Below, piece by piece: positions 3,201 through 38,500 of a stretch of DNA of 64,000 nt. This stretch comes from Protoeuglena noctilucae. Lineage: Eukaryota. Both the position numbers and the translations under genes were made by a program. Where the stretch lies: positions 248,001-312,000 of the forward strand of contig OY253681.1 in assembly GCA_958009085.1 (NCBI GenBank), written 5' to 3'. Under the pieces are notes generated by a model that was not told the DNA's origin, searched no databases, and saw only the letters and a program-made list of their open reading frames with translations. How positions within the stretch are numbered: position 1 is the stretch's first letter; each line of letters starts with the position of its first letter.

Positions 3201-4303
3201 AGGGGGCCATTGCCGAGATCGGCGAGAACATCCAGGTGAGCTGCGTGCCAGGCGTAGGAGCGCCGCGTCCTTTGCGGCTGTGGCGTAGCGCGTTGCTCCC
3301 GGCGTCTGCCTTGCGCAATCCTCCTGCACACCCGTCCTGCACACGCCCACGCACATCCCAGTGGGCGCACTGTCTGCGCCGATCCACCACCTTGCCGCAC
3401 CTGTCCCATCTGCCTTGCCGCACCCGCGTCACATCGTCACTCACCGCCTCCTGCTCCTGACGCCTCCTGCAGTTCCGTCGTTTCGAGCGCTTCAATCTGG
3501 GCGAGGGCATCGAGAAGAAGGAGTCCAACCTGGCCGCGGACATCGAGGAGCAGGCGGCTGCCATGAAGAAGGCGGCCGAGTCGAAGGCGGCCGAGGCGAA
3601 GCCCGAGGCGCCGGTGGAGGCGAAGAAGGAGCCGGCGGCGGAGGCGGTGCAGGTGTCCGCGAAGGACGTCAAGACGCTGCGGGAGATGACGGGGGCGGGG
3701 ATGCTCGACTGCAAGAAGGCGCTGGCGGCCGAGGGCGGCGACGTCGAGAAGGCCGCCGAGTACTTGCGCAAGAAGGGCCTGGCGTCCGCCAGCAAGAAGG
3801 CCGGGCGCGTGGCGGCGGAGGGCGTGATCGCCTCGTACATCCACGCCGGGTCGCGTCTTGGCGTGCTGGTGGAGGTCAACTGCGAGACGGACTTCGTCGC
3901 GCGGGGCGAGAAGTTCCAGACGCTGGCGAACGACATGGCCATGCAGGTGGCGGCGTGCCCCGAGGTGGAGTACGTGTCGATGGCGGACGTGAGCCCCGAG
4001 GCGCTGGCCAAGGAGACGGAGATCGAGATGGGCAAGGAGGACAAGTCCAAGCCCGAGAACATCCGCGCCAACATCGTGAAGGGGCGCGTGGAGAAGCTGT
4101 TCAAGCAGCGGTGCCTGCTGGAGCAGCCCTACATCCGGGACCAGGACAAGACGGTGGAGGAGGTCATCAAGGGGGCCATCGCCGAGATCGGCGAGAACAT
4201 CCAGGTCCGCCGTTTCAAGCGTTTCAACCTGGGCGAGGGCATCGAGAAGAAGGTGTCCAACCTGGCCGAGGAGGTGGCCGCGCAGACGGGCGTGCGCGCT
4301 TGA
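288..4303 (+). CDS. PETs: Plastid polyprotein of EF-Ts (PSRP-7 with 2 S1 domains + Ala/Pro/Lys/Glu linker + 2 EF-Ts domains)
   Basis: Inferred exons 288-302, 530-585, 763-922, 1009-1719, 1896-2621, 2759-3235, 3473-4303. Arg/Ser-rich transit-like N-terminus; S1 motifs [18 protein letters not shown] and [13 protein letters not shown]; two EF-Ts units ([24 protein letters not shown]). First exon is tentative. Confidence 0.93.
1925..2560 (+). repeat. Coding minisatellite encoding AEAKAAP(AP)-type linker repeats
   Basis: Repeated GAGGCCAAGGC(T/C)GC(T/C)CC units seen directly between the S1 and EF-Ts parts. Confidence 0.9.
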
Positions 4304-4506
4304 GCAACGCAACGCAGCGAGCCGTCACGCTCTCGAAGTCCTGTTAGTCCTACGACCCCCTTCCCTCACGTAGCCCACCAGCCAAGGCCTTTTGGCGTGC
4401 AGTACGGTTGAAATGACCACTTCATGAGGCACTGCTTATCGCTAGTACACCCAGCTCACGCAAGGGCCAAGAACAAGGATGTCAGGCTGGATACACCTCG
4501 GCACTC

Positions 4507-5868
4507 TCACAACCCCGCACCCTGTGCTGCCTCTTCCCGCGCCCGCTTCCGGGCCAGGTACCGCTCCTTCGCACTCAGAAGCGCGCTCTCGTCCATCCGC
4601 CGGGCCGCAGGTGGTGCAACCGCCTCGCCCACCCGCCTTGCCTCCGTGCCCCCACCCTGCTCTGTGCCCACGCCCCCTGCCTCGACCGGCCCCGGCCCGG
4701 GCCCAGCTCCAACATTCCCACTACCCTCGCCACGTGCGTGCTCGGCCCCGAGAATCCCTGCATCCTCTCTGCCGCTCTCTTCACGGGGTGCCCCGTTGGG
4801 CGCAGCAGCAGGCTCGCGCTCGTCCCCCGCAGTCGCCCTCCCCTCCGCAGGTGCCCCGGCGTCCTCGCCCGCAAGATCGCTCGCTGCCGCGGTGCCAGAC
4901 GCGCGCGCGGAGGGCGCGGGCTTGGCCCCAAAAGCCGTGTTCTTGGTGAGCAGGTTGCGGTAGAAGTCCGTCAGGTCCCCCCTCTTGGTCACGTCCTCCT
5001 TCTGCTCCTCCTCCTCCTTCTTATTTTGCTCCTGCGCAACAGCAAGTCTCGCAGCTTGCCGTCAGTGCCGAAATCGCACTGCAGTGCGTCTTTGATCCTC
5101 CAAGCCGTGCAGCGACGCTCACCGCGAGCCACTTCTGCTCCTCCTCCAGCTTGCTCCGATACGCGGCCGTAACAAACCTCTCCTTGTCCCCGAACTCGTC
5201 CTTCTCCTTCTCCTGCTCCTTGCGCAAGCGGCGCTCGTATCTGCGGAGGGAAAACCGCCTTCCCTCGCATCCTGGCGGCCCTGCCGCATCGCCAGCTGCG
5301 AATTCGACCAACAAAGTCGCGGATGTGCGCACCGAATCGACTCCTCCATCTTGCGTTCCTGCGCCTTGGCCATCAGCGCCCCGACGTATTTGCTCTCCCG
5401 GGCGATGCGGTCGCGCCGGGCGGGCTCCTCGCGGGCGCGCTTGATGTCGTCGTAGACGCCGTCGTAGTCGAACACGGTGGGGTCCTCTTTCAGGGCAGAG
5501 GCGTGCATATCCGCGACCTTCTGCTGCACCTGCTTGGCGGCGCCCACCCGCTGAACCTGCGCCGAGAACGGACCGGATTGGCTTACCCAAACCTTGGAAC
5601 CCACGTCGGCTGTCATATCCACGTCGCGCTCACCTGTTTGTTCACGCTGGCGTGCCCATCGCCCTCGTCATCGGACTCCTCCCCGAACACCCCCTTCAGC
5701 GGCGCCCGCTGCACCGGCTTCGCTGCCGCCTGCGCGCCACGAGAGCAAGGAGTCGAACCATAATCCCTAACTCGCCATCCATCCTCCAGAACGGCGAGGC
5801 GACGGGTGCGGCACCTTGGTGGGAGGGCCACGAACGTTCAGGCCGTACTGGATGCCCTCCTGCTTCAT
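4507..5868 (-). CDS. NSRP1: Nuclear speckle splicing regulatory protein 1 (CCDC55/DUF2040)
   Basis: MKQEGIQYGLNVR start; ALKEDPTVFDYDGVYD, EFGDKERFVTAAY, DLTDFYRNLL, SAKERYLARK motifs over several exons. Confidence 0.88.
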
Positions 5869-9958: not shown

Positions 9959-12900
9959 CTACGCCTCCACATCCGCCCCTGCCTCTGGAACCTCTGTCAG
10001 TGCCTCCGCCAGTAACCGGGACGCCAGGGGGAGCACGAGGAGGTCCGCCAGGGAGCATCGGAGGCCGTCGAATGCGACGATCGGGTCCGGAGCATGTTGT
10101 GCCTCGCCATGAACAGCGATTGGTGCAGTGACGGTCAGTGTGTCGCCCCTGTCATCTCCCGCTGCTGCCGCTGCCGCTGCCTCCGCGGTCGCCTGGATGT
10201 CGGGGAACACCCCCGCGGGGTACTTGGGATACCGCTGGCTGAAGTGGGTGAGGACGACGCGCTCGGCCCCGGCTTGCAGGGACGCTGAGAGCGCCTCAGC
10301 GGTAGTGCTGTGGATGAGGTGGGACTGATGGTGGTGGGTGAGTGAGGGTGTGAGTAGGTTAGGATGCGGTGGGGAGACCGGGCAAGAGGGACCAGGGTGT
10401 GGCCAATTGCAATCAGCTATTTCTGCCACCTGCCGTCTCTTATAAACCCCCTGCCATCACCAGACCACCATCCACCCGTCTCTCGCCTGTGCCTCTTCCT
10501 CTCGGCCTGCCCCTGCAGCCCCGGCTCAAACGTCGCCTCATGGATCAACATTGTGCAACCGTGGGCGGCACGCGCCAACGCCCTGGAAGGCCTCGTATCC
10601 CCTGAGTAGCACAGGCGCCACCCGGACGCATGCGACAGCACGACGGCGTGCGCGTCGGCGCAGTGCTCCACCGGTACGCTGGAAAGCGATGCGAGGCCCA
10701 CAGCACAAAGCACGTCCGCCCATGCGCCACGGCGCTGGGGGTGGCCGGACGACCACTGCGCGTCCTTGAATTGCAGGAAACGGCAGGAGAGGCTTTGCAC
10801 CGGCAGGCACTGGGATAGCCAGGACTTGCTGCGGGGCAAGAGGGGCGGGGATTTGTGGCGTGAGAATGGTAGGGGCATGTGACAGAACGGCAGGTTCAGC
10901 CGAGCGCAGACGCGTCGCAATGCATCGCAGCGTGCTGTGAGGTTGCGAGTGTGCAGGACAAACTCTCTTAGTAAGCCATATGCGAGATCCATAGTATTAC
11001 GCATGTCTCACCATTGCCACGGCCCCACGATCCACAGGGGCCTCTCGTCCCTGCCACCCGCCTCTGCCTGTGCCGCAGCCCTGGCCCTGAGGACCCCCGG
11101 CAGCCCCACACAATGGTCGGCATGTTTGTGCGAGACCCAAACGATCGCCAACCGCGCCGCCACCTCTCGCGACACCGCCGGCCCCAAATGGCGCACCATC
11201 GCACCCCACGTGCCCTCCCCGCAGTCCAGCAGCACAGCCGCGGGCAATTGCATGTACCCATTCCCACTCTGGCCTTCTCCCTGCCCTAAACCACCACACC
11301 CGCCCTTGCCTTCACCCTCATGTGCGCAACCACGCCACCCCCGCATGAGCAAGATGCCGCTGCTGCCCCTGTACTCGCTAGGCTCAGCCGACCCCGTCCC
11401 CAGAAACACCACTTCCCACTCCTCCAAAGACCCCAGCGCCGCCAGCGTCGCCACGCTCACGCTCTCCGGGCCACACACCGCGTCGTGGACGCCGTGATCC
11501 GGTGCAGACGCAGCGTCCTTCGCGCCTTTTTCACCGCCATCGTCACTGCCACTGCTGTCACCGTCGCAGCTACCGCTGTCGCCCCGGCCATCGCCCCCGT
11601 CGCCCTTGCGACCTGGCCGGGGCTTCCCGTCGGCGCGCGGCGAGCCTGGCTGCGACGAGGACGGCGAAGAGGAACCCAGGGAAATCTCCTCAGCGTTCCT
11701 TACCGTCGGAGCGACAGGCGGCGGTGGCAAAGGTGTCATTGGCATGCTGCCAAGTCGCGTCTGCGCCCCCAGGCTCCCTTGCTCGCCCCACACGCCCCAG
11801 CCACGGTCCCAATTGGCATATCCCTGACCATAGGCGTGACTCTGGAGCCCACCCCACCCCTGTCCATCGCCCGGCCCGCCGTTGCCCTGCAGTCGCGCAC
11901 GCGCACCCCGCAGCGCCACCATCGCCCTTCCCATGGCTCTCTCAACCTCTGCCGCCCTCTGCTTCGCCCACGGATGCGTTTCCAGCAAGTCCCCCTGCAC
12001 CCCAGCCTCGTCCACAGGCTCAGGCACTCGGGCTGACTCCGCGCGTGCTCTGGGCTTCACACCCGCACCCGTGCCAGTCCCCTGCCTCACTGAGACCGGC
12101 CCAATGCCAGTCGAAAAGAGCAGCGGACACCACATGACCTCGGATGTTGCGACACCCACCCCGCCCGCCTCGGCAGGCCCAGGCTCACCGACTCGCGGCC
12201 GCTTGCGTGGCCCCACCCCCGCATCGCCTGTTGCGCCATCCCCGGACGCCCCACTGCGCTCGGCGCATGTCCCGCTCACCATCCCTACGGATCCCGCCAC
12301 GCCCCCGCCGCACTCCCGCAGCGCAGGCCGGCCCCGCGCCCGCCACCGCCCCACGTGCGGCACGGGGAAAGCCCTGGGGCACAGAAACCCCAGGCGAGCG
12401 GAGGTGCGCGACGAGGCCTGAAATCCTTCAGCGCCCTCGAGGGTCTCCGCTGCCCCGGACACGCCCACAGGCGCCCACTCCCCGAACCCCGCCACAGTAT
12501 GTGCGTGGGCACGACCATCGGCATTCGTACCCGCACAGCGCCCAGCCTCGTCGCTGCCCGAGGCCCGGCGAGGCGGCACGCCCCCCACGGCGACAGCAAC
12601 GCGTGGAGCGTTCGCGGCCGCGGCCAGGTCTCGCAGGGCGGCTCTGGTCGGGAGCCATCCCCCGGGCGACATCTGAAAGGCGATAGTCCGGCGTGTGGGG
12701 GGCGTGGCTTGGAGGAGCGAGGTCGCCGCATGGGACCGGAGCTCCGCCACGTCTTGCAGAGACTCGCACATGGTGATGGGGAGCACGCAGTCGATAGCCT
12801 GCTTGGGGCAAGTCAGGGACGGGAGGGGTGAGAGCGACGAAGATGGGCGGGTTGCTAAGCGGTTACCCTTCATGCGACTCAAACATGCAAACCCTCTTAT

Positions 12901-13990
12901 GCAGTGGTCAGACCCGCACCCGGAAGTAGAAGAGCAGCATGAGGAGACGAGTGCCTGGCTCTGGCTGACTTGCGGGGCGTCCGAGGCTGACGGAGCGATC
13001 GTGGCTGGGCGCAGGGTGGCGTGTGGAGGGAACCGGGGTGTCTGTGTACAGAGGGCTGGATCCGTGGGGGAAGCGGTCGAAGGAAGCGGAGGGCGGCGAT
13101 CGAATCACGGGGAGGGAGACGGGCCCAGGGGCCGCCGGGTGGGTACGGTCCGTACGAGTCTCATCACGATCCCTGTCGCCTGCCTCGCTGTCAGCGCTGC
13201 TGCTGTCGCTGCTCTCGCTCGAGGATTCGCTCGCAGGACTCGAAGGGGAGACCTCGGGAAGGGACGCATCGGCATCGCTTGTGGGCGCGCGGGCCGGTCC
13301 ACCCAGCCATGCAGGGCGGGACTCCCAGGCGCGGCCCTGGACCACAGCCGAGACCTCCACGTGCTCATCGCTGCGGAGGCGGCGATGACAGGCAGCTCTC
13401 CCCACGCAACTACTCCTACAGCCATCCCCATCTTAGCCCCTCAACACGGGCAGGTGTGTCACCGCCCGCGCCGATGTCTCGCTCGCCTGTACAGCAAGCT
13501 AGCTTGAGGGCCATCGACAGAGGACACCAGCACCCTCGGATGCTTCCAGGAGAAGATGGGCGAGAAAGACGAGACGTACGCGCCGGTGCCACGCGGCCCA
13601 AACACCTCCACCTCCTCGTGGCCGTCCGAAGCCAGTCGCAAAATGAGTCCTGCAGATAGACACGAAGTAGATGCATGTGTGTCAGGCCTGAGGCACCGCC
13701 GCTGGGGCCGAAGCGCGCGCGGGGAGCTTGGCAATGCAGGCCCGCCTGCCTGGCACGCCACCCGCCGCCTCCGGACGTAGGCTCGGCAGAAAGACGGCCT
13801 TCAGAGCACTCGATGGCCGGATTTTATGCTCGAGGGCCAGTCGCGCAAAGCCCTCGGGCGCCCCGACGAGGTACTGAGCCCGCTGCTGTCCCGGCCGTGA
13901 GCCACCCCCGGCAATCAAGATGGCTGGGCCGATGCCGTCCCCCGGAGCGCCCACCACCGTCGCTTGCCATTCAGAAACCCGGGCGGTCAT
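9959..13990 (-). CDS. Long-form tRNase Z (ELAC2-like metallo-beta-lactamase)
   Basis: N-terminal YLVGAPEGFARLALEHK; FLGTGSAEPS, LLDCGEGT, SHKHADH (HxHxDH), YSGDTRP, LIHEATF, HST, LTHFSQRYPK. Internal exon structure between 11500 and 13600 uncertain. Confidence 0.85.
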
Positions 13991-17815: not shown

Positions 17816-18265
17816 CCCAGTCCCTTCTGTCTGTCCCCGACAACCGTCTCAGGAGAGCATCGGCGAGGGGGGCCCCTCCCGAGCACGCGCACGATACGGA
17901 AACAAACGCCTTGCTTTCCACACAAACGAACTGGGTGTCGGGCGATGCCAACAGCGAATCCGGCTCTCAGAGCGCGCAGGTCTGCGGGCGCAGATGCGCA
18001 TTTCGCCCCCCGTGTCGCTGCATGTCTGCAGTTCCACTGGCACAAAGTTGGGGCGCTCTGCCTCGTCGGCAGGACGTCCATTCGATGCGAGCGCCTCCCC
18101 ATCGCGTCGTTCGCAGCGATTTACGAGCAAAAGCGTAGCTTTCATCCCGCACCACGTCGCCATCGCGTATCTCTCGGTGGCCGCCGACCCGTGATCGAGA
18201 CAGCCTCTTTTCTGCGCCTGCATCGGCGCTGACCTCATTGGCAAGAGGAGGCATCTGCAGGGAGG

Positions 18266-20860
18266 ATGGTGGAGCAGATACAGTCGGCGATCCTGAGCCG
18301 GCTGGACAAGGATGGCGTGGTGGAGGACACGACCGACCTGGCCCAGGCGAGCGCGGAGGATCCTGCCTGGCGTTGCCTAGCCGCGGTTGGCGCGACTGCT
18401 ACGTTGGTGCTCCACTCCGCGACGATGGCTCGCGGTCACGCACGCCCGCGGCGGCGATATCCTTCTGCGCATCGCCGCAGGAGCTTGGCATGGATAGCCA
18501 GGCCGTGGTGGGCGCGGCCAAGTCCCTGGAGGCCGCGGAGATGATTTTGACGGAGCTGAAGAGCACCAACGTGTGGAGGCTCACCGAGGAGTCCCAGCAG
18601 TACGTGGCGGTGGGCGCCTCGGCAGAGTTGCAGCTCTTTCGCGCGATCCCGGAGGACGGCATCGACATGGCCGAGCTCATGAGCATCGCGGGTCCTTACG
18701 CGGAGGTCGGGTTCCGCCAGGCGATGCAGCAGAAGCTGATCCGGCTGGACAAGTCGGGGGGGGCGCCCAAGGTGCTGCGGGCAGGGCCCGAGCCGGCGGA
18801 CGCATCTCTGGATTTGGTGAAGCGGATCGACCGCGGGGAGGAGACAGACACGAAGACTCTTGAGTCAGGCGAGCGGGCGGTTGGAGGCCGTGCCTTGGCG
18901 TGGCAGGGGAGTGTGTGTGGGGAAGCATGCGGAACGCTGCGAGACCTGCATGGCCTATCCTCTTCCCTTCGCGCAGCCAAGAAGCGCAAGCTGGCCGTCT
19001 GCGTGACGTTGACGTCGTTCCGGCTGACCAAGGGCCCGAAGTTTGCCTTGGAGCGCCAGGCGCTGGCGGCAGAGCTGACCCAGGACATGATCGTGAAGGG
19101 AACGTGGCGGGAGACGGCGTTCAAGGAGGTCAACTGGGCCGCGCTCGGGCTGCCCACGGCCGGCGGGCACCTCCACCCGCTCCTCAAGGTGTGGGCAGCG
19201 CCACTGCACCCTATCGCTCGCTGCGGTGCGGCCCCAGTCCCGCCCACGCACGCCGCCGCACCGCTCACGCTCTCCCTATTTCTGTCCGGCAGGTCCGCAC
19301 TCAGTTCCGCAAGATCTTCTTCCAGATGGGCTTCGAGGAGATGCCCACGAATAACTACGTGGAGTCCTCTTTCTGGAACTTCGATGTCCTCTTCCAGCCC
19401 CAGCAGCACCCCGCGCGGGACGCCCACGACACCTTCTTCCTCACCGACCCCTCCACCTCCACGTGAGGGCCGCCCAACGCCCAGCCTACGTCGCAGCGGA
19501 CCGCCGCCCGCGTGGACTGCGATGCTGCGATGCCAGCCTTGTAGCCGCCCCGTGGAGCTTCACCGCTGCCCCGGCACTCCGTTGATCTCCGCAGGGAGCC
19601 GGAGACGGCGTACCTGGAGCGCGTGCGGACGACGCACGAGAAGGGGGGCTACGGATCGCTGGGCTACAACTACGACTGGAAGATCGCCGAGTCGCAGAAG
19701 AACCTCCTGAGGACGCACACGACGGCCGTGTCGTCCCGGATGCTGTACAAGCTCGCGCAGGAGGGCTTTAGGCGAGCGGCGATGGGCACTGCAGGGTGCA
19801 GAGCGCGGGGGCAGGCCGATCGTCGACAGCTCGCCGTGCCGATGGTGGCAACCCACTCTCTGCGCGTTTGCCGTGCGAATGGGCCACCGCTCCGCTTGCG
19901 TGCAGGCCCGCCAAGTACTTCTCTGTGGACCGGGTGTTCCGGAACGAAGCGATTGACCGCACGCACCTGGCCGAGTTCCACCAGGTCGAGGGGCTCGTGT
20001 GCGACAGGTAACAGACGCTGCAGCAGCCATTAATTGCATAAGTGTTTATTCATGCGCTCAGTTCGTTGCAGCGCGCCACCCGTATGTCGATGTCCGCACT
20101 TGGAGGCCCTTGCGGATATGCGGGACCACACCTGCACCTCAAGAGCACGCCAGCACTGGCCTGGGCCCGCCTCGACGCTCGATCTGCTCCACGCGATTCC
20201 CGCAGGGGCCTCACCCTCGGCCATTTGATCGGAGTGCTGCAGGAGTTCTTCCAGCGGCTGGGGATGAAGAAGCTGCGCTTCAAGCCCGCCTTCAACCCTT
20301 ACACGGAGCCCTCCATGGAGATCTTCTCCTATTCGGAGGAGCTGGGCAAGGCGAGCGACGCGCGCGAGCGGCAGCGCGGGGCGCGGTGGGTACCGGCACC
20401 CGCTGCTCATAGGGAGCCGCGCGGCCGTGCCTACATGCTGCCCCGGTGGCCTGATGCGGCCGTGCGCGCTTCCAGCACTGTGGGAAAATCCCGAAGAATC
20501 AAACTCTGAATTTCCTCTGAATTTCCCCTGCCCGCCACACCGCCTGCCCGCCGTGCTGCACGCAGTGGATGGAGGTGGGCAACTCGGGGGTGTTCCGCCC
20601 GGAGATGCTCCGGCCCATGGGCCTGCCCGAGGATGTCACCGTCATCGCGTGGGGGCTGTCCCTCGAGGTGCGCGTTGCCAGCATCGTACTGCCATCGCAA
20701 GGCCCATTGCGCCAAGGCTGCCCGGGTGCAAAGAGGCTCCCTGTGCCCGCAGCGCCCGACCATGATTCTGTACGGCATCGGCAACATCCGCGACCTCTTC
20801 GGCCACCGCGTGTCCCTCGCGACGGTCAAGAAGAACCCCATCTGCCGCCTCGGGTTCTGA
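18266..20860 (+). CDS. FARSA: Cytosolic phenylalanyl-tRNA synthetase alpha subunit
   Basis: [78 protein letters not shown]; 9 exons. Confidence 0.96.
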
Positions 20861-29100: not shown

Positions 29101-30977
29101 CGGCGCTGCCGCAGCCGTCCCCGCCACGCCCGAACCCAGCGCGGCGCCCGAAACCTGCGGAGGCGCAAGTTGATGTCACGCTCGGACCCAGACACCTTGA
29201 ACATGGCACATCACCAGTTGCATACAACGCCCGTGGGTTACCTGGGGGACGTGGCACATGACCGCCACGGGTGCAGACTCGACCGACGCGTTGCCGTAAT
29301 AATCCACGAACGCCCCGGGTTTCACGTGCACCGTCACGACCGCATCGGCCTCGCTGGCCGTCACCGCCACGGTGCCCTCCCCCGCCCTGGCGTCGAGCAC
29401 CACGGTGGCCTGCCCCCCGGGGCCCTCCACGGCGACCGCGTCCGTCAGCGGGCCCACTGACACGACGGGCACGCCGATGTCCAGGCTCAGCGTACTTGTG
29501 CCCCCGCATGGGAAGACTCGGAACGCTTTGGGCACGAGCACCGGCCTGGGACTCGCAGACGAGGTGTGCAGGGCCAAAGACGAGGTAGCAGTGCCGGAGA
29601 CGGGGACGAGCGATGGCAGCGAGGGGCTGGGGCGACAGGTGAAGGTGCCACGGAAGCCGGGGCTGACGGAGAGGGCCACCGTGAGCACGGTCGCCGACCA
29701 GGAAGCGAGGGTCTGTGAGACGAAGCCGCCTCCGCCGAACACTTGCAAGACGTCCACGGCGTCGGAGCGGAGCTGAGAGAGGGCCTCGGCCGGCAAGGGA
29801 GCTGCCAGTGTCAGGCGCAGCACGATGCCTGTTGGCAGCACGTCCACGGGACTGGACGCGTGCAGGGATGCGCAGGGGTCGACTGGCGCGAAGGAGCCGT
29901 CGGGAGAGGGCGAGAGGGCCTGCGAAGATGCAGGTGAAGGTGGCGCATACGCTTGCGCAGCTGCGGCATTTCACTTGCAGCTGGTCCCACGCTTGTGAAG
30001 CTTGCCTGTTGCACCTCCAAGTAGGCGATCAGGCCGGCCAGGTCAGACTGGGAGACTTGCCCGCAGAGCACGTCTCCACGGGTCAGCAACCAGGCGTCGT
30101 CGTGCAGAAGCGGTGGCAGGGATGGCAGGGTGCCACCCCCATCTTGAGAGGGTGGGGAGTTTGAAGGCGTGGGAGTCCCGCTTGGCGTGGATGGGGAAGG
30201 TGAGGGAGAGGATTGCGTCGGGGGCAGAAAAGTGGGAAGGTGGAGACCAGGGCTTGGCGTGGATGGGGAAGAAGTGGGAGAGGATTGCGTCGGAGGCTGA
30301 AGAGTGGGGAGGTTGATGAGCGGAGGTGGGAAGTCGGTGGGTGGCCCTGTGGTGGGTGACGGCGCTGTGGCGGGTGGCGGCCCGTTGATGGGTGGCAGGG
30401 TGACGGGTGGTACTAGAGTTGGCGGACTGGACGGCGGGGGGCCAGATGTGCTCGAGGGTGGAGAGGCTGAGGTGGGAGAAGTCGGCGTGATGGGGAGGGG
30501 TGGCAGGGGCAGCGTCGGTGTCGGGGTGCTCGGGAGGACGTCAACAGGCAGGACTGGCGTGGGCTGGCTGGGCGCAGGAGCCGGCGAAGTGGCGGTCGCG
30601 GTGGGAGCGGGCTTGGGGCTTGCCGTTGGCAAGCTGAGACAGAGGGTCGGGTCCTGGAGGCACGAGGCCAGACGCCGAGCGGACGACCTCTGCGGGCGGG
30701 AATGTGCGGCGTGGGGGAGGCCGTTAGGCGCGCGATGCAGGCGCACAAGATAGCATGACATAACTGCAGAGTTTCATCCGCAGCACATAACTGCAGCGTT
30801 TCATCCGCAGCACCGCGCGATATTCACCGCGAGAAGCGAGGGCGGGGGGTCGTGCACGCATGACGAAGGCGGTGCTGCCGCGACCGATTGGCGCGCCAGA
30901 GCAGGGAATATTGCCTCCCCATGCACCCCTACCAACGTAGTGACACTCAGCAGGGTAACGAGCGCCAGCGACGGCAT
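26198..30977 (-). CDS. Large secretory-pathway multipass membrane protein: signal peptide, Pro/Ser/Thr-rich stalk, beta-rich Ig-like region, TM cluster
   Basis: MPSLALVTLLSVTTLVGVHG signal-like start; P/S/T-rich 30150-30630; VTVHVKPGAFVDYYGN; GRRLL; hydrophobic segments including WPRPELFLALLTLP; C-terminal AKYANRW. Many exons; joining them into one gene is inferred. Confidence 0.6.
30758..30811. repeat. 27-bp tandem duplication
   Basis: ACATAACTGCAG(A/C)GTTTCATCCGCAGC twice, one mismatch, in the likely first intron of the membrane-protein gene. Confidence 0.9.
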
Positions 30978-31677
30978 GATTGAGCTTGGCGACAAGGGTG
31001 CAGGTGGAGGCCTAGGGCGAAGCGAGCGCCTCGTATCGGCCGCCGCGCGAGTGGCAGCAGCCATCGAAGCATTGAGCTTAATAGGCAATGCCTTTTTCAT
31101 CGGCGTTAACGGCTCTCGGACGCCAGGCGGCCTCCCAACATTCCTCGACATGCCAACGAACTACTGTTGCATCCAATGGCTGGATTTTATTGCCGAGGTT
31201 ACTAGCGCACAGCAGTTTGTCGTCTCTTTAGGGACTCTATCGACTTCAGGAGGGACGCCGAGGTTGCTGTGCTGCACAGGGCAAAGTTGGGCTCCTAACT
31301 CATTTCTAGCGTCTCAGGTCCCCATTGCTTAACAGTCTCTGCTTCCCACGTCTCCCGACCTCTCGCACGCCTCTCATCGCCCCTTCACTGACTTGCTTCA
31401 CGCTTGCAACCTCACCCTTGTTGACTGCCTCTCCGCCCTCCTGCATGGGGGGCGGTGGGGCCACACGCAGGCTCGCCCACCGCATCGCCGCCGCGCCTTC
31501 CACGCCCTGGACTGTGATGTCCCTCCTGGTCGCTCCCGGTACCCCCAGCGTACGGTCACCACATTGCTGCAATAACCTGGCATCATTCCTGGGCTCGGGG
31601 ACAGGGTGTGTGGCTCGTGCATGCCACGGAGCGACCCACACGCCCGCGTTTGCAAAACCCCGCGCAGCCTGTCGAAA

Positions 31678-33704
31678 ATGACACCCTCTCTTGGCAAGCG
31701 CAGTTCTGTCTTTGTGTCAAGGCCGACGTGGCCCATCAGGGACGGCGGCCCGTGGGCCCCCGCGCGGCCTTCCCGCCCTTCCCTTGGCGCTTGGGCGGGT
31801 GTGGTCCCCCGGGCTCAGGCGCGGCCCCTGAGCGGCGGCGTCCCTCTGACATTGGACGAATTCGAAGTTGACGTTGCTGGAGACGAGGCGGGAACGAGTT
31901 TCACCCCCGCGATCGACCGCTGGGGTCCGTCAGGCATGGAGCGGCAAACGGACGCCGAGGGCGTCCCGTGGGCGACCGGAAACCCCGCCGTCTTCTCCTA
32001 CGACAAGCTGGTTGCAGGGGAACTCCGGTACCGCTACGGTGAGCTCCGCTGGGCTCGCGCTCGGCGCTGTAAGCAGCCTTCGTCCTCCGGCTGCCTCCAG
32101 CAGGGCCTCTCTTCGCCGCCGCAGACCGTTTCCTGGCGTGTGTGCGCCTGAAAGACGGCTCGGAGGTCCACGTGCACTGCCCCAACACGGGTCCCATGGT
32201 CGGCTTGGTGGGGACCCGCGCAGACAGGCGCATCACGTTGCCGACGGGGGACGTCAAGACCGTCAGGGCGCAGGCGAGTGATCGGGGACTTGCTCCGACG
32301 CATTCGCCGCATCCACACATTACATCTTACGCTGTCCTCCCCCGTGTGCAGGTGTCGGAAGGGGCGCAGGTGCTGATGAGCGACGCGGGGCCCGCCTCGC
32401 GCCGCAAGTGCCGCTTCTCCCTCGAGTGGATGCGCCCCGCGGCGTCGCGGGAGTGGGTGGGCGTGCACTCGGCCAACGCCAACCCCATCGCGCACGCGCT
32501 CTTGACACGCGGCCTTGTGCCTGGTCTGGAAGACCCCACATCAGTGCAGCGGGAGGTGCCCATCAAGCCGGGGACGCGCGTGGACTTCCAAATCGTGCAC
32601 AAGAGGGGCGCGACGGCCGCGTCGACGTTCCTCGAGGTGAAGAGCGTGACGCTGGCGGTGGAGGCGCGGGACCTGGTGCAACGGGGCGGGGCGGAGGGGT
32701 CCCTGGGGATGAGGGACGAGTCTCGGGTGGCCCTGTTCCCGGACACGGTGTCCGACCGGGCGCTGCGGCACGTTCAGGACCTCCACGAGATCGTGCTGCA
32801 CCGCCGGGACAGCCGAGGCGTGGTGCTGTTTGTCATCCAGAGGGGCGACTGCGAGGCGTTCGCGCCCAGCTGGGAGCACGACCCGACGTACAGCGCCGTG
32901 CTGAGCCGGGCCGTGCGGGCGGGGATGCCGGCGCTGGCGGCGCGGTGCCGGCTGACCCGCGACCCGACGCGGGCCAAGGAGGAGGGGCGGGGGTACCAAG
33001 TGGAGTTCTCCGGGCTGGTGCCGGTGGATACGAGCTTGGGGCAGTGCGGGAGCGAGGAGATGGCCAAGGTGGGTCGCACCGTGGTGCGCTTGTGTTGGAT
33101 GCTGGAGTTGCGGTGAGCTGGTCACCGACCGCTGACTGTGACGTCTGTGCAGATCGACAAGGTGCTCGGGAGGCGGCTGACGGCGGCGAGTAAGAAGCGG
33201 AAAGGCGACGAAGGTAAGTAGTTTGGCTGCTGGTGGTCAGTCACACTTGCGTCTTTCTTCAAATCCCACGCCCACTCGAAATGCCGCGCGTTCACACAGG
33301 TGCGGACGAGGAGGGCTTGGCCAGGGCAGTGGCCCGCAAAAAGGCGACGGGGTACAACTTATTCCTCAAGGAGACTCGGGGCATTGTGAAGGAGCAGGCG
33401 AGCGTGGCTGCAACGCGGGGCTGCAAGCACGCACAGCGTGAACAGGGCCAGGAGTGGCTGCAACCTTAGCCCGCTCCTTTGCGCAGAACCCGTCATTCCG
33501 GTGGCCGGACATCACGAAAGAGGTGGCAAGCAGGTGGCGCAGCATGGATGCAGCGGAGCGGGACGCGTGGAACGCCCGTGCAGCGGTGAGCATAGCGAAA
33601 GGGGCGCTGCGATTGGTTACGCGATGCAGCCGGATGGTGCGGAGAAGGACGCGCGTCCCGATCTCGAATGCAAGCAGGACATCCGGAGCGGAGGGGAGTC
33701 GTGA
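31678..33704 (+). CDS. SfsA-family OB-fold/PD-(D/E)XK nuclease fused to a C-terminal HMG box
   Basis: RYDRFLA, HCPNTGPM, WVGVHS..AN, REV, RVDF, FLEVKSVT, FPDTVSDRALRH, LFVIQRGD (SfsA), then spliced KKATGYNLFLKETR..VKEQNPS..W.DITKEVASRWRSM..AERDAW (HMG). Start and last exon tentative. Confidence 0.8.
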
Positions 33705-33742
33705 CGAAGCTGTGCAGAGTTCCTGCCGCGCGGGCGAGGCTC

Positions 33743-35083
33743 TCAGAGACTTCTTCGTCCCGCTGTCAGTCCGGATTTGCGCCTCATGCCTTGGTTCGCG
33801 CAGCCGGCCGCTGCCCAGGAGGCGGCGCCTGCGAGCAGCGCAAGTCTCGCGATTCCAATCTTACTCAGCGGCCCTCGCTGCCCCCGCTGTGTCAAACGTG
33901 TTCCTAGCGTCCGCTCCCGCGACGCTGTCGCGATCCCCACCTTGCCCGTGGCTGGCGCCCCTGAGGGTGGCGGCGTAGGTGCTGGCGGCTCCATCTTAAG
34001 CTTCGAAGTAGTCTCGTGCAAACCCTTCCGTCCGATGTTCTTCGGCGCCGCGGAGATGTACTCCCGGGTCGTCTCTGTCGTCGTGAACCCCCGCATCGTC
34101 GTGAGGTGGTCGCTGGCCGCCCGCCTCGCCATCCGACGGTTTAGCATGCGCGCTTTCGAGAAAAGGGCCTCCGCGTCCCGCACTGCGAGGGGCGCCCGAG
34201 GAGAGACGCTCGTCGGGAGCGGTGGGGAGCGCCGATAGCGCACACTGGCAGGGCGGCTGACGGGGGACGCGAGCAAGTGGCGTGCTGCATCGCACCTGTG
34301 CTGGTGATGGCCTTGGAGCTCGCCTCGTACTCTGACCCCAGTCGCTCCCTCTCCTGCTTCTTGCCATCCAGGTGCTGCGAAGCAGGCAGACAGCCCGACC
34401 TCATGTTGTGAGCACACCGTGCGTGCTTCCACTGCCAAGGCCCCGACCGGCCCCGCCCGCACCTCAGATACCGTCTTGAGCTTTTGATGAAACATGCCGA
34501 TCTCCTTATCGATCCCCTCGATCTCCCGCCGGTCGTCGGCAATCTGCTTCTCCGCCGACGCCTTGCGCTGTGCAAGCTGGCTCATCATCTTGTCCAACCC
34601 GTTGATCGCCCTGCAAGCAGATTCAGCCAGCACTGGTTCACCCACGTTTGGACGCAAAAGGGACGAGGGCGGGACGGCGCGCGGGGCCGGCGTCGCCTCG
34701 CCTTTCGATGAATTTCGGGTCCTGCCTCATGATCTCCTGGATAGACATCTTCTTCATCGCGTTCATCGTCTCGCCCAGCTCCTCCAACTCCGCGCGGGTC
34801 TTATCGTCCGGCTGTGCTGGCGCCTGGGGGCAGGAGGACCGAACAGCGTCGTGCATGTTGCGAGCCCTCCGCTTGCGCTGGCTCCTCGGGAGCGTCGGAC
34901 GATACCGTTGCCGCATTCTTAGCATTTGAAGTCAACTCGCGGGATGCACAGCGACCACAGCGAGGCGTGCCTCGACTAGCATGCCGTTGCGGAGGCGACG
35001 CTCAAGCTTTGCTCGCCCACCTCGGGTGCCGGGGCAGGCGGTGCCGCCTTGGGTGGCTCGGGCTTGGCCTCCTTGGGCGACAT
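33743..35083 (-). CDS. Coiled-coil protein resembling SSNA1/DIP13 with terminal extensions
   Basis: Spliced MSPKEAKPEPP...AINGLDKMMSQLAQRKASAEKQIADDRREIEGIDKEIGMFHQKLKTVSEHLDGKKQE; 3' end uncertain. Confidence 0.55.
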
Positions 35084-35529
35084 GATTTACGACGGGGCAG
35101 CCGCGGTCGTGCGATGCACAGGCCAGAGTTTGAACAACTAGACGGTGTGGTCGTGAAGTCAGTTGGCAGTAGTTTCTACCAGACGCGGATGAGGCGTCGC
35201 GATGCTCCAGTAACTGAGCCCGGCGTGCACGTTTGGCAGCCCAATGAGCTGCACAGGCCTGCTCTGGCATGGGCAGACGCAAGACGCCGTGAACACTGTA
35301 CTCCATGCGCCAGAGACTCGGCCACGCACTTCCCTCGCTCCTGATAGCTTCAGCTGGCACCGGGGAGCACTGCGCGTGTTCGGGTCGACGACGCTATCTG
35401 GTCAGGCCAGGATTTCTCAGATTTTTCACAAAGCAGAGGGCAACACGGCGCGCTCCCGACCGCCTGTGATTCAGAGTCACTCGCCTCGCCCCGCCTGCGG
35501 GCGGGGAGGCGGTTCCAGCGGTTGGCACG

Positions 35530-38500
35530 ATGAGCGCGAGGCGCAGGTGCGCGGCCGCTCCCCTGGCCCGGCGGAACCCGCGATGCAGGCCGGCCCGCAA
35601 CGGAACGGTCCATCGCCCCCTCTCCTTTGATCGCAGCGCTGGTCCCGTCACGCACACCGACCAGGCGATCCTCAGGTACCTCAAAGAGGTCAAGAGTGGG
35701 GACCCTGACTTTGCGGATGTCATTCAAGCCTTGGAACGGACTCTGGACGTCAAAAAGAAAGAGCGCGGTGAGCACCATGCCGCGCATCGGCCCCGTCGCT
35801 GCCGCCTCGGGCCTCTCCCCGAGTCTAGACGCCCTCACGCCCTGGTCCGGCCTACGCAAACCGCCCTGCCGCGTCCTCGGTCCGCAGATATGGCCGCGTT
35901 CGCATCCTTCCACGTTAAGGATGGCAAGCGCCCCGTGTTCCACAACATTCTGTCCTTTCGCGAGGGGCCCGAGCCGCAGCGCTACGTCGACAGCTTCGGC
36001 CGCCTCTGCCGATGGGTGGACGGCTGCATTGAGCTCTACCGTTACGAGCTGAGCCGCGTCCTTTATCCCATCATGGTGTTCACCTACCTGCGGCTCATAC
36101 AGAGGGAGGAGAAGCCGTCCGAAGCGGCTGCAGCGCGGCTTCTGGAGGACCACCGCCACCGGTTCCGGGAAGTCGCGGGCAAAGCCTGCGTCAGGTGCGC
36201 GCTCGATGGATCTACATGCGGTTGCGTTCCCAGGATGTGGGGCGCGCGTTGGCCCGAACGGGGCGCTTGCTTTGCCGGGACGGGATGCACCTGCCCGCGC
36301 TGCGGACTCCTTCCGCCTGTTCGTCCCGCAGGCGCAACCAGGAGATGCGCTTTCTCGAGGGCATTGCGTCGGCCAAGCAGCTGCAGACCCCCGCGGCCGC
36401 CAAGCTGGTCGAGGCGACGTACTCGCTCACCATGTGCGAGTTCACGCGCGACTTGCTGTTCACGTTCCTCCAGGGGTCGAAAATGCCGCTGATCCTCGCC
36501 ATCGTCGTCGAGAACCTGCGCATCCACGTCGAGGGGCGCCCGCCCATGCAGGTGCGTGTGTGTGCAGTGGCAGCACGCTGCAAGGGTCCAGCAATGCGGG
36601 GAGCTGTTTTCAGGGCTTTGTATCGTATGATGCAAGCATACGAGCGCACGCTGCGATGCTAGTCGGCGAGAGTCATTGCATATTGGAGCCGTGGCGTGAG
36701 CGCGCAGGTAGTGGACGATCCTGACATCGACCTCCCCGTGGGCAGCGGTGCGGGCAACGGGACCGCGGAGGACGTGACGAACGACCGGGAGGTGCATCTG
36801 GGTCGCGTGCAGCAGAATTGGGAGGCGCGGATGGACGAGGAGCAGAAGCGGTTGAAGGCAGAGGTGAGCAAGTCGCCCTGACACACAGCCAAGGTGTATG
36901 CCGCATGGTGTGCGCCGCACAGTCGGATCACGGGTGTCGTGTGGCTCCCCGCTGCAGTTCAAGCGCAAGATGGACGAGTATAACAAGCTGAAGAAGTCGG
37001 ACCCATCCGCACAACCGCCCAAGGTGGGTGTGCATGGCAGCAGTAGTGCACCTTGGCGCACCACGATCGGGTGTCCTTCCAGGATGTCACCCGTGCCTGC
37101 ACGAGTGCCTTTTGGATGGACTCAGACAATCTGCGGGCTCTGTCCAGCACGTGCATGCCACGGCACTGCACGTGGCGATCTGGCACTCCTGTCGCCCTCC
37201 GTGCTCTGTGTTCAGGAGCCCCAGGTGGTCCCGGTGTTCCCGGGCGCGGTGAAGCCCAAGGAGCCAAGCGAGGTCCTCAAGGCGATTCTGGACGGGGTAA
37301 ACCCTGCACACGAGGCGGAGGTGCTGGCCGCGATGCGAGCGCGGGCGCTGCCCGACGCCACGCACCTCCCGTCGTGCTGCTTCTTCACTTTCGTCAACAC
37401 GGCGTTCGGGCTCACGTGCGCGACGTCGACCAAGGGAGCCACGATGGTCGCGGGGGGCTTTGAGGACTCGTCCAGTGAGTGTGTGACACACACGCCTGCC
37501 CTCCCGACCCTTTGTGTCCATGCCTCCATGCCCATCTTCTCTCATCCCAAGTGCTAGCGCCGCTAGTCAACGCGCACACCTTATTCATCGTTTCTGCCCA
37601 CCGCAGCCCGGCTCTACGATCTGAAGGACGGGGCAGAGGGGTTGTCGGAGGCAGCACGCACAGCAGGGCTCTCGGGCACGCAGCCTGCGGCGGTGATGCG
37701 GGGTCACACGGGGCCCGTGTACGGCGTGGACTTCAGCCCGGATGGGAGTTTGTTGGTCAGCGGGAGCGCGGACGGGACGGCGCGCATATGGACGACGGAG
37801 CTCAAGTGCTGCGCCGCCACGTACCAGGCAAGGGCTGGCTGCATGACGACTGACATCCTTTTGCCGATGTATAGAGAAGTCGCCTCTCTCAGTTGGCACG
37901 CCTCTCTCAACATGGCTTGCGTGCTTTCCACAACGCGCTGCGGACCCGCCGCTACCCCGCAGCAGCACATGTTCCCCATCTGGGACGTGGCCTTCGCGCC
38001 ATTTGGCTACTTCTTCGCCACCGGCGGCGCCGACACGACCTGCCAGGTGTTCACGACAGACCGCAAGTATCCAGTGCGTATCATGGTGGGCCACCAGTCC
38101 GACGTCGACTGCGTCTGCTGGCACCCGAATTGCACGCTGATCGCCACGGGGTCCAGCGACCGCACCGTGCGGCTCTGGGACCTCAACAGCGGCCTTTGCG
38201 TGCGCGTCTTGTCAGGTGACCCAACTGCACCCCTGCACTCGATGGCGCTTCGTCTGCCGCCCATGCGGGGCGCGCGTTGGTGCTGCACGCGCTCGGATGA
38301 TGAATGGGCCTGTTAAGGGTCGCTTTGCGGGTGCCCGCATCAGTTCCGCAAGGCTGGCCCCTGACCTTGTCTGCAGGGATGCGGGAGGCGGCGACGTCGC
38401 TCGCTGTCAGCCCCGACGGTGCGACGATCGCGGCGGGGAGCGAGGACGGGTCGGTGCGGGTGTGGGACATCGGCAAGGCGCAGCAGATGGCGTGCTTGGT

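Follow-up and report, generated by a model that had tools for sequence, protein, structure and literature searches.

A single expressed gene of Protoeuglena noctilucae joins an SfsA protein to a high-mobility-group (HMG) box. It lies on the forward strand of contig OY253681.1 (assembly GCA_958009085.1), within positions 248,001 to 312,000; this whole stretch of 64,000 nucleotides (nt) is referred to below as the window, and all coordinates are those of the window. The locus is an eight-exon nuclear gene of a GC-rich marine green alga (G+C of the window about 65%). Its coding sequence, 31445-33704, gives on joining of the exons 1647 nt and a protein of 548 amino acids (aa), with canonical boundaries at every intron. 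In order, the protein has a basic N-terminal extension, the SfsA OB domain, the PD-(D/E)XK domain, a basic KKRK linker and one HMGB-type HMG box. SfsA-HMG is a new domain architecture made from two known families, so far seen only in a small clade of marine green algae. The best explanation overall, to which an even chance is given, is that one expressed SfsA-HMG gene encodes a DNA-tethered nuclease, with the nucleus as its favoured site of action.

A search of public sequencing runs returned 12, eight of which held the stretch; four of these eight are recorded as RNA. All the RNA runs come from a single marine metatranscriptome study and the evidence consists of assembled contigs, not raw reads. 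Contigs of three RNA runs (X1, X3 and X4) and of one DNA-like run (X5) were mapped onto 31200-34400, and the mapped contigs were at least 99% alike to the window. Seven plus-strand joints were found, each in all three RNA runs and none in the DNA-like run, where the entire stretch lies in one unspliced contig. Record 8 of X3 (785 nt) begins in the SfsA exon at 32695, spans introns 4-7 and ends at 33830. Record 1 of X1 (1620 nt) starts at 31346 and its listed pieces reach 33066 (1459 nt); from the length of this contig and a depth equal to that of joints 4 and 5, we infer that it continues to about 33397. As these two contigs bridge both parts, one RNA carries the SfsA as well as the HMG exons. 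The features of the gene are:

31346..31444 (+): 5' untranslated region (UTR), from contigs X1 record 1, X3 record 6 and X4 record 11; no ATG
31445..31605 (+): exon 1, coding part, from the first ATG of the transcript; the basic N-extension begins here
31606..31703 (+): intron 1, GT-AG, 98 nt; joint 31604>31703 in three of three RNA runs; encloses ATG 31678
31704..32038 (+): exon 2, remainder of the N-extension, basic at first and acidic afterwards, with OB strand 1
32039..32124 (+): intron 2, GT-AG, 86 nt; joint in three of three RNA runs
32125..32273 (+): exon 3, SfsA_N OB domain (Pfam), with HCPNTG at 32175-32192
32274..32351 (+): intron 3, GC-AG, 78 nt; joint 32269>32348 (shift up to 5) in three of three RNA runs; boundaries cag|GCGAGT...CAG|gtg
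32352..33068 (+): exon 4, complete SfsA PD-(D/E)XK domain (PF03749), preceded by the last part of the OB domain
32577-32588, 32634-32645, 32736-32744 and 32838-32852 (+): exon 4 motifs RVDF, EVKS, FPD and QRGDC, respectively
33069..33152 (+): intron 4, GT-AG, 84 nt; joint in three of three RNA runs; holds the in-frame stop of the unspliced frame, 33114-33116
33153..33213 (+): exon 5, conserved linker IDKVLGRRL at 33153-33179 and KKRK cluster at 33192-33203
33214..33299 (+): intron 5, GT-AG, 86 nt; joint in three of three RNA runs
33300..33397 (+): exon 6, HMG-box helix 1, preceded by a basic lead-in; aligns with the box of the homologue P0002
33398..33486 (+): intron 6, GC-AG, 89 nt; joint 33393>33483 (shift up to 4) in three of three RNA runs
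33487..33585 (+): exon 7, helix 2 and the start of helix 3 of the HMG box (Pfam)
33586..33677 (+): intron 7, GT-AG, 92 nt; joint 33584>33677 in three of three RNA runs; splits the HMG box
33678..33704 (+): exon 8, coding part, the final 8 residues and TGA; 3' UTR to at least 33830 (X3 record 8)

The transcript contigs start at 31346-31362. There is no ATG in 31346-31444, the first being that at 31445, whose frame continues past intron 1; upstream of 31445 this frame is open back to 31310 with no further Met, and the second in-frame Met is at 31517. An earlier note on this DNA had placed the start at ATG 31678. This lies inside the RNA-supported intron 31606-31703, so that the first 9 residues proposed were wrong and the true N-terminus is longer. 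The note had listed three introns, 33069-33152, 33214-33299 and the GC-AG intron 33398-33486, and the junctions of all three proved exact, each being present in all three RNA runs and absent from X5; four further introns (31606-31703, 32039-32124, 32274-32351 and 33586-33677) had been missed. The stop codon that it gave, 33702-33704, is correct, and single contigs bear out its in-frame joining of the SfsA exon to the KKRK linker (33192-33203) and the HMG-box exons. Before splicing, the open frame of the gene has 347 aa (32073-33116 in the list of open reading frames, ORFs), with short linker-like and HMG-like frames downstream. Transcripts ending at the unspliced stop (33116), with the HMG exons transcribed separately, had been named as the refuting case; none was seen, and contigs bridge both parts.

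Two other splice choices were dropped: for intron 3 a GT donor at 32262, which is also in frame, since the GC donor at 32274 is the one that agrees with the RNA joint, and for the last intron a 44-nt alternative (33586-33629), since the RNA joint ends at 33677. GC-AG boundaries occur in two of the seven RNA-supported introns (32274-32351 and 33398-33486, both with donors CAG|GCGAG), far more than the share of about 1% that is usual in eukaryotes.

Relatives were sought with the 347-aa frame. A word-index search scored 8000 candidates; 422 of them reached E ≤ 1e-3, and the best 120 of these were listed. One of these 120, the metagenomic protein P0002 (541 aa), carries SfsA_N, SfsA and HMG_box in its precomputed Pfam annotation. 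P0001 is an ORF fragment of the window gene itself (100% identity) and the spliced 548-aa product was absent among the matches listed. All three domains of P0002 score above the Pfam cut-offs (SfsA 1e-28; SfsA_N 7.9e-12, 45.5 bits; HMG_box 9e-12, 45.7 bits against a cut-off of 25.4), and residues 66-543 of the spliced model align with it at 40% identity, linker and box included (blastp, E 2e-107). P0002 is one uninterrupted ORF, 3727-5694, on the 6.5-kb contig L001, so its evidence for the fusion is independent of splicing in the window, whether L001 is DNA or cDNA. The protein is found in contigs L002 and L003 as well; these have neighbouring record numbers, probably come from one campaign and are not independent.

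When P0002 was compared, without a profile, with every one of 1.84 billion representatives, 2972 matches had E ≤ 1e-3, the best 150 of which were listed. When the linker and box of P0002 were compared with 254 fetched proteins and the window model by local phmmer (255 sequences), the only matches were P0002, its fragment P0121, the spliced C-terminus of the window model (E 2.4e-15) and P0156 (E 2e-4); the blastp alignment of the window model likewise passes through the box. P0156 and P0260 (557 and 566 aa), a third lineage from another metagenomic source, have the C-terminal half of SfsA followed by HMG_box (31.8 bits) and HMG_box_2 (36.2 bits), with at least one further HMG-like repeat beyond the box scored by Pfam. 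The number of HMG boxes varies inside the fusion family. P0122 (276 aa) reads through an intron positioned as intron 4 of the window gene and then has the same linker motif. Because intron-containing eukaryotic genes appear in sequence libraries mostly as ORF fragments, the few fusions seen are a minimum, and the true spread may be wider.

These relatives bear on whether the fusion is genuine. Adjacent SfsA and small HMG-box genes might have been joined by read-through or by contig mis-assembly; the RNA evidence consists of assembled contigs from one study, there are unspliced contigs over intron 7, and the unspliced frame has its stop at 33116. However, all four joints downstream of the SfsA exon are in frame, each in all three RNA runs, the linker and HMG box follow SfsA in frame in the intronless ORF of P0002 and in P0156/P0260, and the window protein and P0002 are about as similar in the HMG region as elsewhere. 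The artefact reading is close to refuted, and we give it very little credence. The gene is therefore treated as a true fusion, in which SfsA, basic linker and HMG box come from one mRNA, as the earlier note had proposed; the architecture is also kept in relatives.

A tree was built with FastTree from 123 rows: residues 151-440 of the window model, P0002-P0120 minus P0041, P0054 and P0093, and P0122-P0127. The three rows dropped had poor coverage or long inserts; P0001, P0121 and P0156 are not in the tree. The method is a quick one and the sample is biased to top matches, and no donor is drawn from it. The window model, P0002 and P0122 form a clade (support 100). This clade lies among the green-algal SfsA proteins, where its neighbours, with support 93, are P0124 and a Pedinophyceae sequence. 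Green-algal and oomycete SfsA fall on one side of a split (support 99) and bacteria, cyanobacteria included, on the other. The architecture is conserved in a small clade of related marine algae.

Several wider searches added no further fusion. A homologue search with P0156 returned only itself, probably since low-complexity words filled the candidates, and a scan of viral contigs with the SfsA alignment A1 (described below) gave 13 pattern matches and no relatives. In an Atlas search with P0002, every cluster found was of SfsA, none carried the fusion, and no score exceeded 0.79. None of the 12 ORFs flanking P0002 on L001 has a Pfam family, and in tblastn of the ORFs of L001-L003 against the window the SfsA gene itself was the sole match. 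Among the papers listed in searches of the openly accessible literature, there was no description of the architecture or of a eukaryotic SfsA function, in keeping with the earlier note, to which the architecture was not known as a characterised protein.

One SfsA cluster in the Atlas, with 67 members, is labelled 96% viruses (Nucleocytoviricota), and a preprint on the giant algal virus PkV RF01 reports an ORF annotated as SfsA (bioRxiv 10.1101/2020.07.30.228163). The evolution of eukaryotic SfsA may have involved giant viruses. In other papers, an SfsA nuclease is among the candidates for horizontal gene transfer in Cyanidioschyzon (PMC6629376), and SfsA-like domains are placed in bacterial defence contexts (PMC13276650, PMC2743648).

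The SfsA part of the window protein is intact. Exon 4 matches the Pfam SfsA restriction-endonuclease domain PF03749 at E 2.7e-28 and 98.9 bits (cut-off 22.8), over profile positions 3-136 of 138. Exon 3 matches SfsA_N, PF17746, at E 6.1e-6 and 26.7 bits (cut-off 25), over profile positions 6-29 of 63 only, the match being partial because of an insertion after HCPNTG in the OB domain. The motifs HCPNTG, RVD, EVKS and FPD that the earlier note had read from the DNA are all present, at the positions given in the list. Conservation was judged from alignment A1 (100 rows, 91 of them non-fusion), in which a column was called near-invariant if at least 85% of the 91 non-fusion rows agreed; the OB columns of A1 are unaligned for the window model. 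At every near-invariant column where it is aligned, the window model has the consensus residue or a conservative change, and the residues kept include D of RxDF, E-V-K, FPD, R, H, QRGDC and DP.Y. With overall identity at about 40%, the window protein, P0002, P0122 and P0156 (in the part that it has) all retain the PD-(D/E)XK catalytic and other near-invariant residues. Such retention is what would be expected of a working active site. In an OB strand, the K of the consensus RYKRF is replaced by D (RYDRF) in both P0002 and the window model.

AlphaFold2 was run on P0002 with A1, that is, on a homologue and not on the window protein (mean predicted local distance difference test score, pLDDT, 73; predicted template-modelling score 0.68). 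The SfsA core is mostly at pLDDT >90 with the OB strands present, and a linker helix (437-451), which matches the exon 5 segment of the window gene, is predicted with confidence. Residues 1-81 are disordered (pLDDT <50), as is an internal Gly-rich insert. Foldseek against the PDB matched the model with E. coli SfsA 4DAP (E 2e-19, template-modelling score on the target, TM, 0.85) and with the Pyrococcus furiosus SfsA-DNA complex 4DAV (TM 0.84), and a PDB sequence search also found 4DAP (3.6e-18).

In PMC1189080, SfsA is predicted to combine an OB domain with a PD-(D/E)XK domain bearing an ID-EVK motif, with non-specific DNA binding; PMC3424549 gives its function as unknown. The only experimental properties of SfsA that these papers cite, from Takeda et al. 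2001, are non-specific DNA binding by the E. coli protein and an effect on maltose (mal) genes. These properties are what a mainly non-catalytic DNA-binding or chromatin protein would have, in which SfsA would be a DNA-binding scaffold, the HMG box would add bending and cleavage would play no role; moreover, a solved SfsA-DNA complex exists (4DAV, by its title) and HMG boxes are typical of architectural factors. Set against this are the PD-(D/E)XK and other near-invariant residues, which are kept across fusion proteins at about 40% identity, and the fact that RYDRF for RYKRF, in the OB strand, is the one departure of the fusion clade from the consensus. A protein without a cutting role is accordingly thought improbable.

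The identity of the C-terminal part as an HMG box is clearest in P0002. Its AlphaFold2 model has helices at 470-485, 491-504 and 507-535 with pLDDT of about 92-95, and these three C-terminal helices superpose on the HMG-D-DNA complex 3NM9 with TM 0.70 and a root-mean-square deviation (rmsd) of 1.4 Å (Foldseek). Other Foldseek matches of the C-terminus are SSRP1, HMGB1 and TOX, and a PDB sequence search with the box (phmmer) found HMGB1, HMG-D, NHP6A and SSRP1 at 1e-4 to 4e-7. A basic cluster is kept in the linker across the fusion clade, as KKRK in the window protein, KKRDR in P0002 and KKRKRE. In the window gene, exon 7 alone (33 aa) matches HMG_WDHD1 at E 2.4e-6 and HMG_box_2 at E 1.6e-3.

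A weak match to the YABBY C-terminal domain (E 0.0027-0.0054, below cut-off) was seen at about residues 30-70 of P0121 and P0258, both fragments of the P0002 family. The matching region corresponds to the first two HMG helices, with a pattern of the type GYNLF..K...IK..NP, and a link between the algal type of box and the plant YABBY domain is possible on this resemblance.

Taken together, the domains would act as follows. The HMG box and basic linker would bind bent, distorted or branched duplex DNA whatever its sequence; the SfsA nuclease and OB domain would thereby be held on such DNA, and the PD-(D/E)XK site would cut the DNA so held. The protein would thus be a chromatin- or DNA-tethered, structure-preferring endonuclease in repair or in the processing of recombination intermediates. 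The structure-selective nuclease put forward in the earlier note is a plausible idea.

Several points weigh against this explanation. The RNA support comes from the one study, and X1 (record 2) and X4 (record 15) hold unspliced 150-nt contigs across intron 7 (33557-33706), which could come from the convergent neighbour or from an isoform that keeps the intron and so lacks the end of the HMG box. The box of the window protein, being split by intron 6, was scored exon by exon: exon 6 alone (32 aa) has no Pfam match, and exon 7 alone matches HMG_box at E 3.9e-4 and 21.2 bits, against the cut-off of 25.4, over profile positions 23-54 of 69. Helix 3 of the window protein ends about 8 residues past the WNARAA motif and is shorter than in P0002. 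All three fusion proteins have N or H at the position that we take to be the hydrophobic wedge of HMG-D (Met13), a substitution that may weaken bending. The fold evidence belongs to P0002, which is 40% identical, and not to the window's own protein, and PMC1189080 and PMC3424549 describe SfsA as a predicted nuclease with non-specific DNA binding. Finally, the first 103 residues of the protein have 10 K/R and 1 D/E, are 67% A/S/T/P/G/R and have no hydrophobic core. Organellar transit peptides have such a composition, which argues against a purely nuclear protein.

The N-extension is roughly 160 aa long, the 103 basic low-complexity residues being followed by an acidic stretch, and it is probably disordered. 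Were its first 100 or so residues a cleavable transit peptide, the protein could be a plastid or mitochondrial nucleoid nuclease, with the HMG box anchoring SfsA on nucleoid DNA, for example in the processing of branched replication or recombination intermediates. The N-terminus of P0002 (1-81) is likewise predicted to be disordered, and SfsA is a family of bacterial type, cyanobacteria being among the bacterial matches listed. Against a presequence is the finding that 8 of 26 inspected eukaryotic SfsA homologues have only 8-38 residues ahead of the first conserved motif, which leaves no room for one. These eight include the nearest relatives of the fusion clade, P0003 (Pedinophyceae) and P0124, as well as chlorophycean homologues, and several have basic C-terminal tails instead.

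Clusters resembling a nuclear localisation signal (NLS) point the same way. Of 22 named eukaryotic SfsA homologues, 14 have K[KR]x[KR] clusters in their extensions, where 500 composition-preserving shuffles of each lead one to expect about 3.8, and the KKRK-type cluster of the linker is kept in the window protein and P0122, and as KKRDR in P0002. Among oomycete and green-algal homologues (P0003-P0126), NLS-like basic clusters are common in either N- or C-terminal extensions. The HMG box, in turn, resembles the nuclear, HMGB-type boxes. L001 has no in-frame Met upstream of residue 66 of P0002, so that a long presequence in P0002 would require an unseen upstream exon, although a short motif upstream of this Met 66 is shared with the window protein.

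The short N-termini of the nearest relatives, the NLS-like clusters, the kept linker cluster, the HMGB-type box and the lack of an upstream Met in P0002 are the reasons for favouring the nucleus, which is put at roughly an even chance as the compartment; an organelle is a tentative alternative, doubtful on these features, and the nucleoid nuclease with a transit peptide is judged possible to the same limited degree. A broader version holds that SfsA-HMG is an organelle-nucleoid enzyme and that early-diverging marine green algae fitted several bacterial-type DNA enzymes with a eukaryotic HMG box for their plastid or mitochondrial nucleoids. This is considered distinctly unlikely.

Beyond the fusion gene, a convergent neighbour that is not part of it lies downstream:

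33743..34726 (-): convergent neighbour, 327-aa ORF; CT..AC joints (minus-strand GT-AG)

Its introns are at about 33828-33939 (joint 33827>33940, three of three RNA runs) and 34183-34295 (joint 34182>34296, one of three), its transcribed region runs into the 3' UTR of SfsA-HMG, whose last exon covers 33678-33830 with this UTR included, and the 327-aa ORF has no Pfam family. A 320-aa frame at 29811-30773 (-) has a very high content of Pro/Ser/Thr repeats (runs of PTP, SPP and PPP) and looks like a hydroxyproline-rich protein of cell-wall type or a low-complexity frame artefact of GC-rich DNA. The frame at 18139-19707 (+) encodes a cytosolic phenylalanyl-tRNA synthetase (PheRS) alpha subunit (PheRS_DBD3, E 6.9e-12), whose best named matches are from green algae at about 40% identity, with one further relative at 79%. 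A TFIID/TAF5-like NTD2 domain was found at 35470-36489 (+; E 3e-12) and a weak Lactamase_B_2 match at 11008-13101 (-; E 2.4e-5, below cut-off). The other 25 of the 28 long window ORFs scanned have no Pfam family.

The papers searched credit SfsA, a widespread protein of OB and PD-(D/E)XK domains, with no cellular role beyond non-specific DNA binding and a predicted nuclease activity. The conserved and expressed fusion of an intact SfsA to an HMG box, a module that bends duplex DNA, is a clue in this respect: it suggests that SfsA, at least in eukaryotes, acts on double-stranded, probably distorted, DNA or on chromatin, not on RNA or sugars, and SfsA-HMG is a natural construct for testing substrate preference. 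The NLS-like tails of green-algal and oomycete SfsA likewise suggest that a bacterial-type nuclease may have a nuclear role. If the organelle-nucleoid reading were true, SfsA-HMG would act on branched or distorted DNA as a nuclease bound to nucleoids, and would offer a first way into the function of the SfsA family. The reach of these proposals is limited to a small clade of marine algae and to known domains, with a function predicted from sequence.

Among the known systems closest to the fusion is bacterial and archaeal SfsA (PF17746 and PF03749; 4DAP from E. coli, 4DAV and 4DA2 from P. furiosus). The two-domain core of OB and PD-(D/E)XK is shared, as are HCPNTG, RxDF, EVK, FPD and QRGDC, and the P0002 model superposes on 4DAP and 4DAV with TM 0.85 and 0.84. 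In contrast to these proteins, the window gene is eukaryotic and intron-containing, and its product has the N-extension of roughly 160 aa, an insertion in the OB domain and RYDRF in place of RYKRF; it also adds the helical basic linker and HMG box, which are absent from 119 of the 120 matches listed. The next fold match after SfsA is NucS/EndoMS (5GKE, 2VLD; E 2.3e-3), which shares a two-domain plan with a C-terminal PD-(D/E)XK domain, but the superposition is poor (TM 0.26-0.28, rmsd about 14 Å) and gives no evidence of membership.

TFAM and Abf2, which the earlier note had named for comparison, also carry HMG boxes on a protein with a basic, presequence-like N-terminus. Their boxes are in tandem, whereas the window protein and P0002 have one box each, attached to an enzyme, and the PDB matches of the HMG region listed are all nuclear HMG-box proteins. 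The fusion resembles HMGB-type boxes, the class that binds without sequence specificity (boxes A and B of HMGB1, HMG-D, NHP6A and SSRP1; PF00505): the P0002 box scores 45.7 bits against PF00505, and its predicted fold matches the HMG-D-DNA complex with an rmsd of 1.4 Å. As in the inter-box linker of HMGB1, a basic lead-in precedes the box of the fusion. Unlike those boxes, that of the fusion is single and stands at the C-terminus of an enzyme, and its third helix is shortened in the window protein.

The stand-alone eukaryotic SfsA proteins of green algae, such as Pedinophyceae, Coccomyxa and Volvox, and of oomycetes, such as Aphanomyces and Phytophthora, lie on the same side of the split as the fusion clade (support 99). 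None has an HMG box, either in the precomputed Pfam annotation or in our own scan of P0014, P0017, P0027 and P0054. The nearest named stand-alone homologues among the matches listed (P0003, P0005, P0009, P0010, P0013 and P0014) are 34-37% identical to the window protein. Many of the stand-alone proteins have basic NLS-like clusters in their terminal extensions, and in the SfsA homologue of Pleodorina a VDK...G..RGR stretch resembles the linker of the fusion.

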